DNA from: Escherichia coli | GTDB taxonomy: Bacteria; Pseudomonadota; Gammaproteobacteria; Enterobacterales; Enterobacteriaceae | Length of the DNA stretch: 64,000 nt | Reading direction: 5' to 3' (one strand) | NCBI RefSeq assembly: GCF_048403405.1 | Contig: NZ_CP183129.1 | Shown: piece after piece, positions 14,913 through 38,082 of the stretch | Layout: each line of letters starts with the position of its first letter | Position numbering within the stretch: position 1 is the stretch's first letter | Program-made: the position numbers and the translations under genes | The notes under the pieces: model-generated | Databases searched by the model: none | The model's input: only the letters and a program-made list of their open reading frames with translations | Told to the model about the DNA's origin: nothing

Positions 14913-17383
14913 TGGCTATCAGTTGGATCCAGCCCAGCTTTGCCGGTGGTGAGATTGGACCGTCGTTGTACGGTCGTATCGACATGGCGAAGTACCAGGT
15001 GGCATTGCGCAAGTGCGATAACTTTATCGTGCGGCAGTATGGCGGCGTTGAGAATCGACCTGGTACGCGTTTTATCGGTGCCGCCAAATACCCAAATCGG
15101 AAATGCCGCCTGATCCCGTTCCAGTTCTCGACGGTTCAGACCTATGCTCTGGAGTTCGGGCACCAGTACATGCGCGTTATCAAAGATGGTGCGTTGGTGC
15201 TGAACAGCAGCAATGTTATTTATGAAATTGCCACGCCATATACTGAAGCCGATCTGTTCCGAATTAAATTCACGCAAAGCGCCGACGTGCTTACGCTGGT
15301 TCACCCGGCATACCCGCCGAAAGAGTTGCGCCGCTACGCGCATGACAACTGGCAACTGGTTGATGTGGTAACGAAGAACGGGCCATTTGAAGATATCAAT
15401 ATTGACGAGTCAGTGACGGTTTATGCCAGCGCCAGCACCGGGGCAATTACGTTAACGGCAAGCGCCTCTATTTTTGGCGCGGAGCAGGTAGGCAAATTGT
15501 TCTATCTGGAACAGCCTGCAGTGGATTCAGTGCCGGTATGGGAAACCAGTAAGAGTACGTCGATTGGCGATATTCGCCGTGCAGGCAGTAACTACTATCG
15601 CGCCGTTACAGCAGGCAAAACAGGCACTTTGCGCCCTTCGCATACAGAAGGCACATCATGGGATGGCTGGGGCGGATCCGGTGATGATGATACTGGCATT
15701 GAGTGGGAGTATCTGCACAGTGGGTTTGGCATTGCCCGTATCACTGCTGTAAACGGCACTACTGCAACTGCCGAGGTGATTTCCTATATCCCTTCGCAGG
15801 TCGTTGGCGAGGATAATGCCAGCTATAAATGGGCTAAATATGCCTGGAACAGTGTTAATGGTTATCCTGGCACTGTTGTTTATTATCAACAACGTCTTTA
15901 CTTCGCCGCATCGACTGCGTTCCCTCAGACTATCTGGACCAGCCGTACCGGGGATTATAAGGATTTTGGCAAAAGCAATCCTACGCAGGATAACGACAGA
16001 ATTATCTACACCTATGCCGGGCGTCAGGTTAATGAGATCCGCCACCTGATTGATGTTGGTTCGCTGGTGGCGCTGACTTCCGGAGGTGAGTACGTCATCA
16101 CCGGCGACCAGAACAAAGTGTTAACCCCATCATCATTTGCATTCAGCTCTCAGGGGTCAAATGGCTCAAGCAACGTCCCACCAATTGCTGTGGCGAATAT
16201 TGCTCTGTTCGTCCAGGAGAAAGGCAGTGTTGTCCGTGATCTGGCCTACTCATTCGATGTTGACGGCTATCAGGGGAACGACCTTACTATCCTTGCCAAT
16301 CATCTTTTTCAGAAGCACAGCATTGTTGACTGGTGCTTCTCGATTGTCCCTTACTCCAGCGCATTCTGCATTCGTGATGACGGTAAATTATTGGTAATGA
16401 CCTATCTGCGTGATCAGCAGGTTTTCGCATGGGCACCACAATCCAGTACCGGAAAATATGAAAGCACATGCAGTATCAGCGAAGGCAATGAAGATGCGGT
16501 GTATTTCGTCGTTAACCGAACCGTTAACGGGCAAACAGTGAGATACATCGAGAGACTGTCCAGCCGTTTATTTACCAGCGATGAAGATGCTTTCTTTGTT
16601 GATTCTGGCCTTAGCTATGATGGAAGAAATACGTCTGACAGAACGATGATCATCACTGGTGGTTCTGGCGAATGGGATTACCGCGCGGAATATACAATCA
16701 GTGTTTCTGGTGGTGCGTACTTCACCAGTAGTGATGTCGGCGCGCAACTACAGTTCCCTTATACCGGAACGGATCCTGATACTGGCGATGAAGTGTCAAA
16801 AGAATTACGTTGCGACATTATTTCTGTAACCAGCAATACCGCTGTAGTGGTTCGTCCTAACAGGAACGTCCCGCCATCCCTCAGGAATGTGGCCACCACG
16901 AACTGGCAGATGGCGCGCCGGGCATTTGGCGGCTTGTCTCATCTTGAAGGTCAGACCGTAAACATTCTCTCTGATGCGAACGTGGAACCACAGAAAGTGG
17001 TTTCCGGAGGTGCCGTCACGCTGGAATCTCCGGGGGCTGTAGTGCACATCGGCCTGCCAATAACTGCTGAATTCGAAACACTGGATATCAACATTAACGG
17101 ACAGGAAACGCTGCTGGACAAAAAACAGGTGATCCCCTCCGTTACTCTGGTTGTGAATGCCAGTCGCGGCATCTGGGCGACTACGCCCGGCGGTAAATGG
17201 TACGAATATCCACAGCGTGAATTCGAGTTCTACGATGATCCTGTTGATGATGCTACCGGAAAAGTAGAAGTGAAACTGGACAGTAACTGGGGCAAAAACG
17301 GACGTGTAAAAATCCGTCAGCTTGATCCGTTGCCGCTGTCTGTTCTTGCCGTTATTCCTCGCCTTACTGTTGGGGGATTCTGA
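14912..17383 (+). CDS. Putative tail tubular protein B-like (nozzle)
   Basis: 823 aa, in the position and size of T7 gp12; call by synteny only. Confidence 0.45.
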   Translation: MAISWIQPSFAGGEIGPSLYGRIDMAKYQVALRKCDNFIVRQYGGVENRPGTRFIGAAKYPNRKCRLIPFQFSTVQTYALEFGHQYMRVIKDGALVLNSSNVIYEIATPYTEADLFRIKFTQSADVLTLVHPAYPPKELRRYAHDNWQLVDVVTKNGPFEDINIDESVTVYASASTGAITLTASASIFGAEQVGKLFYLEQPAVDSVPVWETSKSTSIGDIRRAGSNYYRAVTAGKTGTLRPSHTEGTSWDGWGGSGDDDTGIEWEYLHSGFGIARITAVNGTTATAEVISYIPSQVVGEDNASYKWAKYAWNSVNGYPGTVVYYQQRLYFAASTAFPQTIWTSRTGDYKDFGKSNPTQDNDRIIYTYAGRQVNEIRHLIDVGSLVALTSGGEYVITGDQNKVLTPSSFAFSSQGSNGSSNVPPIAVANIALFVQEKGSVVRDLAYSFDVDGYQGNDLTILANHLFQKHSIVDWCFSIVPYSSAFCIRDDGKLLVMTYLRDQQVFAWAPQSSTGKYESTCSISEGNEDAVYFVVNRTVNGQTVRYIERLSSRLFTSDEDAFFVDSGLSYDGRNTSDRTMIITGGSGEWDYRAEYTISVSGGAYFTSSDVGAQLQFPYTGTDPDTGDEVSKELRCDIISVTSNTAVVVRPNRNVPPSLRNVATTNWQMARRAFGGLSHLEGQTVNILSDANVEPQKVVSGGAVTLESPGAVVHIGLPITAEFETLDININGQETLLDKKQVIPSVTLVVNASRGIWATTPGGKWYEYPQREFEFYDDPVDDATGKVEVKLDSNWGKNGRVKIRQLDPLPLSVLAVIPRLTVGGF

Positions 17384-35295: not shown

Positions 35296-35487
35296 CTAAC
35301 GTTGTACCGGTGATTCGACGGAGAGTGTGGATTGCTGAGCTTCTTTTTTGCTCTGATGGTGCTGCCATGCACCGACGGACGAGTAGATAAAACGGCCAAA
35401 GAAGAAGATAAAGCTGATGAGCAGTACGATACGGGTCATGCGACTGTTAAATCGGTGTCGTTTTCGCATACTGGTTGCCTGACTCAC
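35296..35487 (-). CDS. yfgG: YfgG, small membrane protein
   Basis: 63 aa, single TM; size and synteny match K-12. Confidence 0.75.
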   Translation of the reverse strand: MSQATSMRKRHRFNSRMTRIVLLISFIFFFGRFIYSSVGAWQHHQSKKEAQQSTLSVESPVQR

Positions 35488-35697
35488 AAAAGGTTCCTTG
35501 AAGTATGTCCCACGCTGTGGACGGTACTTACATTAAGGCACAACAGGACAAAATGGTCAATTCTTCGTTATGTAAAAAAGCGTCAGTGGATACATATTTT
35601 AATGTTATGGAAGTTAATTTAATTATTTACAATGATGATGTAATAATGATGAATTAACATGATAAACGTAATAATTCATTAATCAGGGTTATTTTGT

Positions 35698-35711
35698 TTG
35701 ATATATATCAA
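35698..35711 (+). promoter_or_regulatory. FNR box (TTGAT-ATAT-ATCAA) upstream of pdeF, with -10 TAGAAT at ~35733-35738
   Basis: Perfect match to the FNR consensus TTGAT-N4-ATCAA about 22 bp upstream of a -10 hexamer (class II arrangement). Confidence 0.6.
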
Positions 35712-35838
35712 TTGGAACTTTCATATGACACTTAGAATCAATGCTCTCTATAGTGATGAATAATCATCATTCGAAGTCAGGTGGGATGCCTGTCTGAATA
35801 CACCTCCTTCAGGATGTGGGGGATTCTGCTGAGCATCT

Positions 35839-38082
35839 ATGAAACTGAATGCAACTTATATAAAAATACGTGATAAATGGTGGGGGCTTCCGCTGTTCCT
35901 GCCTTCTTTAATCTTGCCCATTTTCGCCCACATTAATACTTTCGCGCATATTTCTTCCGGTGAGGTTTTTCTCTTTTATCTGCCTCTGGCTCTGATGATC
36001 AGCATGATGATGTTTTTCAGCTGGGCGGCATTGCCAGGGATCGCCTTAGGGATTTTTGTCCGCAAATATGCAGAGCTGGGTTTTTACGAAACGCTCTCAT
36101 TAACGGCTAATTTTATTATCATTATCATTCTCTGTTGGGGCGGTTACAGGGTCTTTACTCCCCGGCGTAACAACGTTTCACATGGTGATACCCGTTTAAT
36201 TTCCCAGCGTATATTCTGGCAGATTGTGTTTCCTGCAACGCTGTTTCTGATACTTTTCCAGTTTGCTGCGTTTGTAGGATTACTGGCGAGCAGAGAAAAT
36301 CTGGTCGGCGTCATGCCTTTTAATCTCGGGACCTTAATCAATTATCAGGCCTTACTGGTGGGCAATCTGATTGGTGTCCCGCTGTGCTACTTCATCATTC
36401 GTGTAGTGCGAAATCCGTTTTATTTACGTAGTTATTATTCGCAATTAAAACAGCAGGTTGATGTCAAAGTCACCAAAAAAGAGTTCGCACTCTGGCTACT
36501 GGCATTAGGTGCTTTACTGCTGCTGTTATGCATGCCGTTAAATGAAAAAAGCACAATTTTTAGCACCAACTATACCTTGTCATTATTGCTGCCCCTGATG
36601 ATGTGGGGAGCGATGCGCTATGGTTATAAGCTGATTTCGCTGCTCTGGGCGGTCGTGTTGATGATCAGCATCCACAGCTATCAAAATTACATTCCCATTT
36701 ATCCTGGCTATACCACGCAGCTGACCATAACCTCCTCCAGTTATCTGGTATTCTCTTTTATTGTCAATTATATGGCTGTACTGGCAACCCGTCAGAGAGC
36801 GGTTGTCAGACGCATTCAGCGGCTTGCGTATGTGGACCCGGTAGTTCATCTGCCAAATGTTCGCGCCCTGAATCGCGCGTTGCGTGATGCCCCCTGGTCT
36901 GCGCTTTGTTATTTACGCATCCCTGGCATGGAAATGCTGGTTAAGAACTATGGCATCATGCTGCGGATTCAATACAAGCAAAAACTTTCTCACTGGCTGT
37001 CACCCTTGCTGGAACCGGGTGAGGATGTTTATCAGCTTTCGGGTAACGATCTCGCGCTGCGACTGAATACAGAATCGCACCAGGAGCGCATTACCGAACT
37101 GGATAGCCATCTCAAGCAATTTCGTTTCTTTTGGGATGGAATGCCGATGCAACCGCAGATTGGCGTCAGTTACTGCTATGTGCGCTCGCCAGTGAATCAT
37201 ATCTACCTGCTGCTGGGAGAGCTAAATACGGTCGCCGAACTTTCCATCGTGACCAACGCCCCGGAAAATATGCAGCGTCGCGGGGCAATGTATTTGCAAC
37301 GCGAATTGAAAGATAAAGTCGCGATGATGAATCGACTACAGCAGGCGCTGGAACACAACCATTTTTTCCTGATGGCCCAGCCGATTACCGGTATGCGTGG
37401 CGATGTCTACCATGAAATTCTTCTGCGCATGAAAGGTGAGAATGATGAACTGATCAGCCCCGACAGCTTCTTGCCGGTCGCGCACGAATTTGGTTTATCG
37501 TCGAGTATCGACATGTGGGTCATTGAGCATGCGCTGCAATTTATGGCTGAAAACAGAGCGAAGATGCCCGCTCACCGTTTTGCCATTAATCTGTCGCCAA
37601 CCTCGGTATGTCAGGCTCGTTTTCCCGTTGAAGTCAGTCAGCTGCTGGCTAAATATCAAATTGAAGCGTGGCAACTTATTTTTGAAGTCACCGAAAGTAA
37701 TGCTCTGACAAATGTTAAGCAGGCGCAAATCACCTTGCAGCATCTTCAGGAATTAGGCTGCCAGATTGCGATTGATGATTTCGGCACCGGCTACGCCAGC
37801 TATGCGCGGCTTAAAAATGTGAATGCCGATCTGCTTAAAATTGACGGCAGTTTTATCCGCAATATTGTGTCAAATAGTCTGGATTATCAGATAGTGGCGT
37901 CGATTTGCCACCTGGCGCGAATGAAGAAAATGCGGGTAGTGGCAGAGTACGTTGAAAACGAAGAGATCCGCGAGGCGGTGCTCTCTTTGGGGATCGATTA
38001 TATGCAGGGTTATCTTATTGGTAAGCCGCAACCGTTAATTGATACGCTGAATGAAATCGAACCCATTCGCGAAAGTGCCTGA
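35839..38082 (+). CDS. pdeF: c-di-GMP phosphodiesterase PdeF (YfgF): membrane MASE1 domain, degenerate GGDEF, EAL
   Basis: 747 aa, N-terminal multi-TM region and C-terminal EAL signature; size and synteny match K-12. Confidence 0.9.
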   Translation: MKLNATYIKIRDKWWGLPLFLPSLILPIFAHINTFAHISSGEVFLFYLPLALMISMMMFFSWAALPGIALGIFVRKYAELGFYETLSLTANFIIIIILCWGGYRVFTPRRNNVSHGDTRLISQRIFWQIVFPATLFLILFQFAAFVGLLASRENLVGVMPFNLGTLINYQALLVGNLIGVPLCYFIIRVVRNPFYLRSYYSQLKQQVDVKVTKKEFALWLLALGALLLLLCMPLNEKSTIFSTNYTLSLLLPLMMWGAMRYGYKLISLLWAVVLMISIHSYQNYIPIYPGYTTQLTITSSSYLVFSFIVNYMAVLATRQRAVVRRIQRLAYVDPVVHLPNVRALNRALRDAPWSALCYLRIPGMEMLVKNYGIMLRIQYKQKLSHWLSPLLEPGEDVYQLSGNDLALRLNTESHQERITELDSHLKQFRFFWDGMPMQPQIGVSYCYVRSPVNHIYLLLGELNTVAELSIVTNAPENMQRRGAMYLQRELKDKVAMMNRLQQALEHNHFFLMAQPITGMRGDVYHEILLRMKGENDELISPDSFLPVAHEFGLSSSIDMWVIEHALQFMAENRAKMPAHRFAINLSPTSVCQARFPVEVSQLLAKYQIEAWQLIFEVTESNALTNVKQAQITLQHLQELGCQIAIDDFGTGYASYARLKNVNADLLKIDGSFIRNIVSNSLDYQIVASICHLARMKKMRVVAEYVENEEIREAVLSLGIDYMQGYLIGKPQPLIDTLNEIEPIRESA

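Follow-up and report, generated by a model that had tools for sequence, protein, structure and literature searches.

The class II FNR promoter of pdeF (yfgF) in Escherichia coli: conservation across Enterobacteriaceae and a candidate element in the pdeF leader

The closest described system is the yfgF promoter of E. coli K-12, yfgF being another name of pdeF. The account of Lacey, Partridge and Green (2010) that is quoted in PMC3718329 places it in class II of the FNR promoters, the box being at −41.5 and the −10 element being TAGAAT, and the expression of yfgF is maximal under anaerobic conditions. A paper on RegulonDB curation also has yfgF among the genes that FNR activates in anaerobiosis (PMC4207228). 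FNR occupies the locus in vivo: Myers 2013 (PMC3688515) reports a yfgF/yfgG peak found by MOSAiCS, NCIS and CisGenome in ChIP-seq data and by CMARRT in ChIP-chip data (Table S5). The site beneath this peak is TTGATATATATCAA, with a PatSer score of 16.08 and a ln p of −14.9, and no enrichment of H-NS, IHF or Fis is recorded over it (Table S6). A single known start site is listed for yfgF, with reference to Lacey 2010 (Table S9).

Two other promoters are useful for comparison. That of yfgF in Salmonella Enteritidis (STM2503) has TTGAC--ATCAA at −41.5 and TACAAT as −10 element (PMC3718329). It differs from that of E. coli by one half-site mismatch and by the −10 variant, and its FNR dependence was deduced from the sequence alone. 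The model class II promoter pnirB of MG1655 reads TTGATTTACATCAA-21-TAAGGT, i.e., the gap is equal to the 21 bp found at pdeF, and it has no functional −35 element. NarL/NarP, IHF and Fis take part in the regulation of pnirB. The known modifiers at pdeF are an antagonism by H-NS/StpA (PMC3688515) and, reportedly, growth phase and temperature.

The locus analysed here lies in a window of 64 kb (the whole stretch of E. coli DNA that was analysed). The window is the reverse complement of the MG1655 sequence, in which pdeF (b2503) occupies 2626695-2628938 on the minus strand, between ppx and yfgG, and the FNR box 2629066-2629079 of NC_000913.3. Comparison with the K-12 promoter, which had been proposed as a check, gives an identical box and an identical hexamer: −41.5, TAGAAT and the class II arrangement described in the quoted account all match. 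In the surrounding 451 bp, 450 bases are the same in the window and in MG1655, the only difference being an A at 35716 (window) in place of a T (K-12), in the spacer. The coordinates of the features are collected in Table 1.

Table 1. Features of the yfgG-pdeF region, in window coordinates.
Feature	Position	Strand	Remarks
yfgG, 63 aa, DUF2633	35296..35487	-	divergent neighbour; start 217 nt from box centre
AT-rich tract, 20-26% G+C	35550..35697	.	abuts box on upstream side; likely H-NS/StpA-sensitive region
FNR-binding site TTGATATATATCAA (TTGAT-ATAT-ATCAA)	35698..35711	+	palindromic; perfect consensus, 10/10; centre 35704.5
21-bp spacer, box to −10 hexamer	35712..35732	+	length invariant and sequence free in orthologues; holds the sole K-12 difference
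−10 hexamer TAGAAT	35733..35738	+	TAAAAT, TACAAT or TATAAT in other genera; named −10 element in PMC3718329
Inferred transcription start	35746	+	puts box centre at the published −41.5; equals NC_000913.3 2629031, minus strand
pdeF 5' untranslated leader, about 93 nt	35746..35838	+	inferred start to ATG at 35839
Leader hairpin 1, AG-U-CAGG (UGGGAUG) CCUG-U-CU	35775..35795	+	loop GGA 35784-35786; RNAalifold consensus
3-codon upstream ORF AUG CCU GUC UGA (M-P-V-stop)	35786..35797	+	overlaps hairpin 1
Leader hairpin 2, GAAU..CCUCC (UUCAGGAUGU) GGGGG AUUC	35796..35826	+	loop GGA 35812-35814
Nearly invariant block GCAUCUAUG over start codon	35833..35841	+	complementary to hairpin 1 GGAUGC; possible alternative long-range pairing
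pdeF (yfgF) CDS, 747 aa, MASE1 + degenerate GGDEF + EAL	35839..38082	+	ORF, Pfam, RefSeq annotation

The gene downstream is indeed pdeF, as the sequence-only reading of this DNA had it when calling it a c-di-GMP phosphodiesterase: the RefSeq annotation is pdeF, and Pfam finds MASE1 (residues 15-320, 1.5e-70) and EAL (residues 498-730, 3.1e-71). GGDEF is not detected in PdeF by Pfam at E≤0.001, which is consistent with its published «degenerate» status.

The same reading had claimed a perfect TTGAT-ATAT-ATCAA about 22 bp upstream of a TAGAAT hexamer, in a class II FNR arrangement. The palindrome is present, and the span that had been given, 35698-35738, begins exactly with the box and ends exactly with the hexamer. 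TAGAAT is found as well, but the distance is 21 bp, not 22. The class II arrangement agrees with Lacey 2010, as far as PMC3718329 relates it, and with the geometry observed across genera (see below). The last base of the box is at 128 bp from the pdeF ATG.

How much weight can be given to the motif itself? The perfect form, TTGATNNNNATCAA, occurs once in the 64 kb, and this occurrence is the pdeF box. After shuffling, the mean is 0.11 perfect box per window, with at least one in 10 of 100 shuffles (p about 0.1 per 64 kb). When one mismatch is allowed, the window contains 5 sites vs. 3.1 expected; the four one-mismatch sites are at 15876, 22223, 29809 and 30644. The FNR motif by itself is thus weakly surprising, and it is its position and its conservation that carry the argument. 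These figures are also what speaks for a chance palindrome deprived of any regulatory role: a perfect box appears in 10% of the shuffled windows, and the surrounding DNA has only 20-26% G+C.

The transcription start at 35746 was obtained by arithmetic from the sequence and from the −41.5 quoted in PMC3718329; a start at 35745 would give −40.5. With the hexamer placed at −13 to −8, the box centre falls at −41.5. The −41.5 assignment rests on this secondary citation and on the geometry. It must be noticed that a transcript starting there would begin with C, which is unusual for an initiating nucleotide. The parts of the Cappable-seq, Federowicz 2014, Shigella FNR RNA-seq and Mendoza-Vargas 2009 supplements that were available contain no genome-wide start-site or expression record for the locus, an absence that is uninformative since the cultures were mostly aerobic. 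At 17-bp spacing from TAGAAT, the −35 position reads AATTGG. The sole TTGnnA is TTGGAA (35712-35717), at 15 bp from the −10 element, and there is no usable −35 hexamer at a suitable spacing from TAGAAT, as expected for an activator-dependent promoter.

The conservation of the promoter was considered in two sets of orthologues. The first was obtained by a protein-based scan, with one genome per species, which returned full-length PdeF from Escherichia clades, Enterobacter asburiae, Phytobacter and several Kluyvera (57-63% identity outside Escherichia). Each locus with upstream sequence contains an FNR-type box with 0-1 mismatch, and in all of them TAnAAT follows after 21 nt. In a gapless comparison of seven lineages, the ten half-site positions have a column majority of 0.94 and the hexamer one of 0.98, vs. 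0.61 in the central N4, 0.63 in the spacer and 0.51-0.58 in the flanks.

The second set comes from a metagenome scan keyed on an 18-mer of leader hairpin 1, i.e., independent of the FNR motif, which gave 60 further pdeF loci. Once the duplicates were removed, a box with at most one mismatch and TAnAAT at exactly 21 bp are found in 58 of 60 distinct upstream regions (Escherichia, Kluyvera, Phytobacter, Enterobacter and metagenomic relatives). In these 58 regions the box is made of TTGAT or TTGAC followed by ATCAA or GTCAA, the hexamer is TAAAAT, TAGAAT, TACAAT or TATAAT, and the spacer sequence diverges. The combination described for Salmonella STM2503 is also that of two metagenomic loci (L186 and L196), which read TTGACTTAAATCAA-21-TACAAT. 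One of the two exceptions is not a pdeF locus and the other is locus L160. About half of the metagenome matches to the 18-mer are unrelated coding sequences, a number close to the chance expectation, and the scan does not point to another gene family with a hairpin-1 leader.

According to these alignments, strong purifying selection acts across Enterobacteriaceae on both half-sites, on the −10 hexamer and on the exact length of 21 bp between box and hexamer. As 58 of 60 distinct lineages preserve this length, the anaerobic control of pdeF is an ancestral trait within this portion of the Enterobacteriaceae, not a peculiarity of K-12. The added value of this cross-genus result is modest. It nevertheless leaves hardly any credit to a chance palindrome, given that half-sites and exact spacing are maintained in 58/60 orthologous regions while the neighbouring bases drift, that FNR occupies the site in vivo (PMC3688515) and that dependence on FNR is published, in the form in which PMC3718329 and PMC4207228 relate it.

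Locus L160 (metagenome contig Ga0207655_1000062) is a pdeF orthologue with a deletion of about 30 nt in the promoter, which fuses the left half-site TTGAT to cacTAAAAT. Its start-codon block is altered too (GGCGCCUAUG). Either FNR control was lost naturally in this lineage or the deletion is an artefact of assembly.

The same alignments bear on an FNR-independent sigma-70 promoter, ATGACA (35725-35730)-18-TATAGT (35749-35754), for which the box would be incidental or located at about −56. This pair is the sole promoter-like match of a consensus scan and agrees with the consensus at 10 of the 12 hexamer positions; the scan, however, returns this 1 site vs. 2.2 expected in shuffled sequences. 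ATGACA and TATAGT are not conserved outside Escherichia (column majority 0.69 and 0.50, respectively; Kluyvera has CCCGCG for TATAGT), whereas TAnAAT at the 21-nt gap is universal. Moreover, a FNR box at about −56 suits neither class of FNR promoters. Such a promoter is thus very unlikely to be responsible for pdeF transcription. It was rejected as the main promoter for its lack of conservation beyond Escherichia and is, at best, minor and lineage-specific.

The identity of the protein bound must also be considered. The core TGA-N6-TCA is common to CRP and FNR sites and some promoters are recognized by both proteins, so CRP or another protein of the CRP/FNR family, rather than FNR, might be the ligand. 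The half-sites, however, are TTTGA/TCAAT, with T where CRP requires G (GTGA), and the variants found across genera are TTGAT, TTGAC, ATCAA and GTCAA, never GTGA. The ChIP signal at the site, finally, was that of FNR (PMC3688515), and the probability left to another ligand is very small. FNR ChIP-seq data had been named beforehand as a way to check the box: the peak stands on the exact 14-mer, and it was seen by ChIP-chip too (PMC3688515).

It could be argued that the palindrome serves mainly, or additionally, the divergent gene yfgG, from a distal, class I-like position and on the minus strand. The site is symmetric, and the 351-bp intergenic region shared by the two genes is syntenic in all genera. 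yfgG is also about 2.2-fold up anaerobically in the wild type (0.45; Table S12, PMC3688515), and blocks that may belong to a yfgG promoter are found at 35530-35632. On the other hand, the yfgG ATG is at 217 nt from the box centre, and in no genus does the minus strand have a conserved −10-like hexamer at 19-23 nt past the box. It is on the pdeF side that an element is fixed at a 21-nt gap. In addition, yfgG is absent from the fnr-dependent operons (Table S8) and the peak is assigned to yfgF (Table S9) in PMC3688515. A role in yfgG expression is thus improbable, although less so than the other alternatives considered here. In its class II form it was rejected, there being no conserved −10 at the mirror position.

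Taken together, these data identify 35698-35738, with high confidence, as the FNR-dependent class II promoter from which pdeF (yfgF) is transcribed. Without oxygen, dimers of [4Fe-4S]-FNR would bind the palindrome, centred about 41.5 bp upstream of the start, i.e., in the place of a −35 element. FNR would then recruit and activate the sigma-70 RNA polymerase, with TAGAAT used as −10. The transcript would open with about 93 nt of leader and continue into the coding sequence of the MASE1/EAL c-di-GMP phosphodiesterase. This promoter is already known and ordinary: there is nothing new in the promoter itself.

The activation is not the same in all conditions. In anaerobic glucose minimal medium, yfgF mRNA shows no fnr-dependent change (Table S9, PMC3688515). 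The average of the FNR ChIP-chip peak is significantly higher in an hns stpA mutant (1.68) than in the wild type (0.35; Table S7), and yfgF depends on O2 in the hns stpA mutant only (0.23, i.e., about 4-fold up without O2; Table S11). The anaerobic expression of pdeF announced by the sequence-only reading is consequently upheld by PMC3718329 and PMC4207228 but has to be qualified, given the lack of fnr effect in glucose minimal medium (PMC3688515). According to the data of Myers, FNR activation of pdeF is conditional, with an antagonism by H-NS/StpA. The content of 20-26% G+C over 150 bp upstream of the box likely fits a sensitivity to H-NS. The AT-rich upstream tract would let H-NS/StpA damp the access of FNR, hence a conditional activation. 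Activation of yfgF is also reportedly tied, in the abstract of the original study, to low growth rate and to 28 °C.

The intergenic alignment contains a second conserved block, longer than the FNR box, which corresponds to the pdeF leader from 35775 to 35841. Within the protein-selected set, the sequence of hairpin 1 does not vary from one genus to another. Pair counts show no covariation for this hairpin, both arms being invariant. Escherichia, Kluyvera and Phytobacter (M-P-A) retain the upstream ORF; in Enterobacter-like leaders its stop is lost and the frame sometimes reaches the pdeF ATG. Hairpin 2 is variable in stem and loop sequence, with compensatory changes at two pairs. Its CCC...GGA...GGG pattern is found in the 43 distinct leaders (43/43), and in 36 of them GGA lies in a hairpin loop of the minimum-free-energy structure. 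The long-range pairing GGAUGC:GCAUCU, between hairpin 1 and the start-codon block, is formed in 97.7% of the cells of the alignment, and its only changes are one-sided (G-C to G-U, U-A to U-G). As both arms are invariant, covariation is uninformative between the local and the long-range fold. The leader taken as a single sequence folds no more stably than its shuffles (z = −0.25), and a search of 35300-36000 against Rfam (E≤10) returned noise only.

The leader resembles CsrA/RsmA targets in that two conserved GGA, 28 nt apart, are each predicted in a short hairpin loop. Thus the pdeF leader contains what was looked for in a CsrA target, i.e., at least two GGA separated by 10-63 nt, with at least one in a hairpin loop. 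The SELEX consensus of CsrA is RUACARGGAUGU. The second GGA site of E. coli, CAGGAUGU, matches this consensus. Unlike in CsrA/RsmA targets, hairpin 1 is invariant in sequence and not merely in structure. No GGA overlaps the Shine-Dalgarno/start region either: the nearest one ends 25 nt before the AUG, the sequence immediately 5' of which is GAGCAUCU. The cultures of the published CsrA CLIP-seq survey were reportedly aerobic; if so, pdeF would have been poorly expressed and its absence from the survey says little. The supplements of this survey (Potts 2017) have no entry for yfgF, pdeF or b2503, and no literature linking CsrA to yfgF or STM2503 was found. Judged on sequence and predicted folding, the pdeF leader may be a site of CsrA-type or other post-transcriptional control.

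It is tentatively proposed, with more doubt than confidence, that 35775-35841 might constitute an undescribed cis-regulatory RNA present throughout the Enterobacteriaceae, with two GGA hairpins, an upstream ORF and a start-codon block able to pair with hairpin 1. We know of no description, to date, of a post-transcriptional control of pdeF. If the proposal is true, a post-transcriptional gate would be placed on top of the control by FNR and H-NS. This gate could be the binding of CsrA, blocking or freeing the initiation region, or a conserved target of an sRNA or of a protein. Anoxia alone would then be insufficient to obtain PdeF, and this would explain the binding of FNR without mRNA or protein response in some conditions. 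The leader element, if confirmed, would matter more than the FNR promoter, and it is the sole lead worth passing on.

Further upstream in the leader, at 35752-35771 (about +7 to +26 of the inferred transcript), the window contains an 8-bp hairpin, AGUGAUGA-AUAA-UCAUCAUU. Its sequence is specific to Escherichia; at the same place Kluyvera has an unrelated GC-rich inverted repeat, CCGCG..CGCGG. This hairpin may be a 5' stabilising stem-loop.

The order yfgG-pdeF-ppx is kept in every genus examined. In the interval between yfgG and the FNR box, PGAP annotates a 50-aa «hypothetical protein», WP_000017552.1 (35505-35657, plus strand). This is probably a spurious call, since E. whittamii, Enterobacter, Phytobacter and Kluyvera lack an intact version of the ORF, which has no Pfam match either. 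The same interval contains, on the yfgG side (35530-35632), conserved non-coding blocks, i.e., ACATTAAGGCACA (35530-35542) and GGTCAATT (35555-35562). A palindrome is present at about 35592-35605, ACATTAATTAATGT in Kluyvera and ACATATTTTAATGT in E. coli, and a possible promoter on the minus strand reads TTGTAA-17-CATAAC (35632-35604). From their conservation and position, the 35530-35632 blocks are probably the promoter/operator of yfgG.

Two more FNR ChIP-seq peaks, with weaker boxes, are reported at guaB/xseA (TTGATCTCGCTCAC) and at upp/purM (TTGACTTTAGTCAA) (Tables S5 and S6, PMC3688515). By arithmetic on MG1655 coordinates, they are estimated at about 30546 and about 43810 of the window, respectively. 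Neither of these two boxes is among the sites of the window with at most one mismatch, the four one-mismatch sites being different sequences.

Within the species, the 451 bp round the site have matches in 5422 of 5426 complete E. coli genomes, and the RefSeq features beneath are yfgG, the «hypothetical protein» and pdeF. The match covers less than 80% of the 451-bp query in 57 of these 5422 genomes. A match to the 76-bp core promoter, always with at least 95% identity, exists in 5403 of the 5426 genomes; it is exact in roughly half of the E. coli genomes and differs by at least one base in the other half. The A/T polymorphism at 35716 presumably accounts for this roughly equal split.

Two aberrant loci deserve mention. 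In E. coli O15_8X (NZ_CM182542.1, 4119-4875), an IS1A element stands where the rest of the intergenic region, with the FNR promoter, and the 5' portion of pdeF would be. The break corresponds to about 35568 of the window onward, pdeF is a pseudogene without its N-terminus, and a prophage adjoins yfgI. In Escherichia sp. MOD1-EC7003 (1-78), all similarity upstream of pdeF is lost from 22 nt ahead of the ATG, in a stretch where the contig also ends; the abrupt divergence suggests an insertion or a rearrangement in the pdeF leader.
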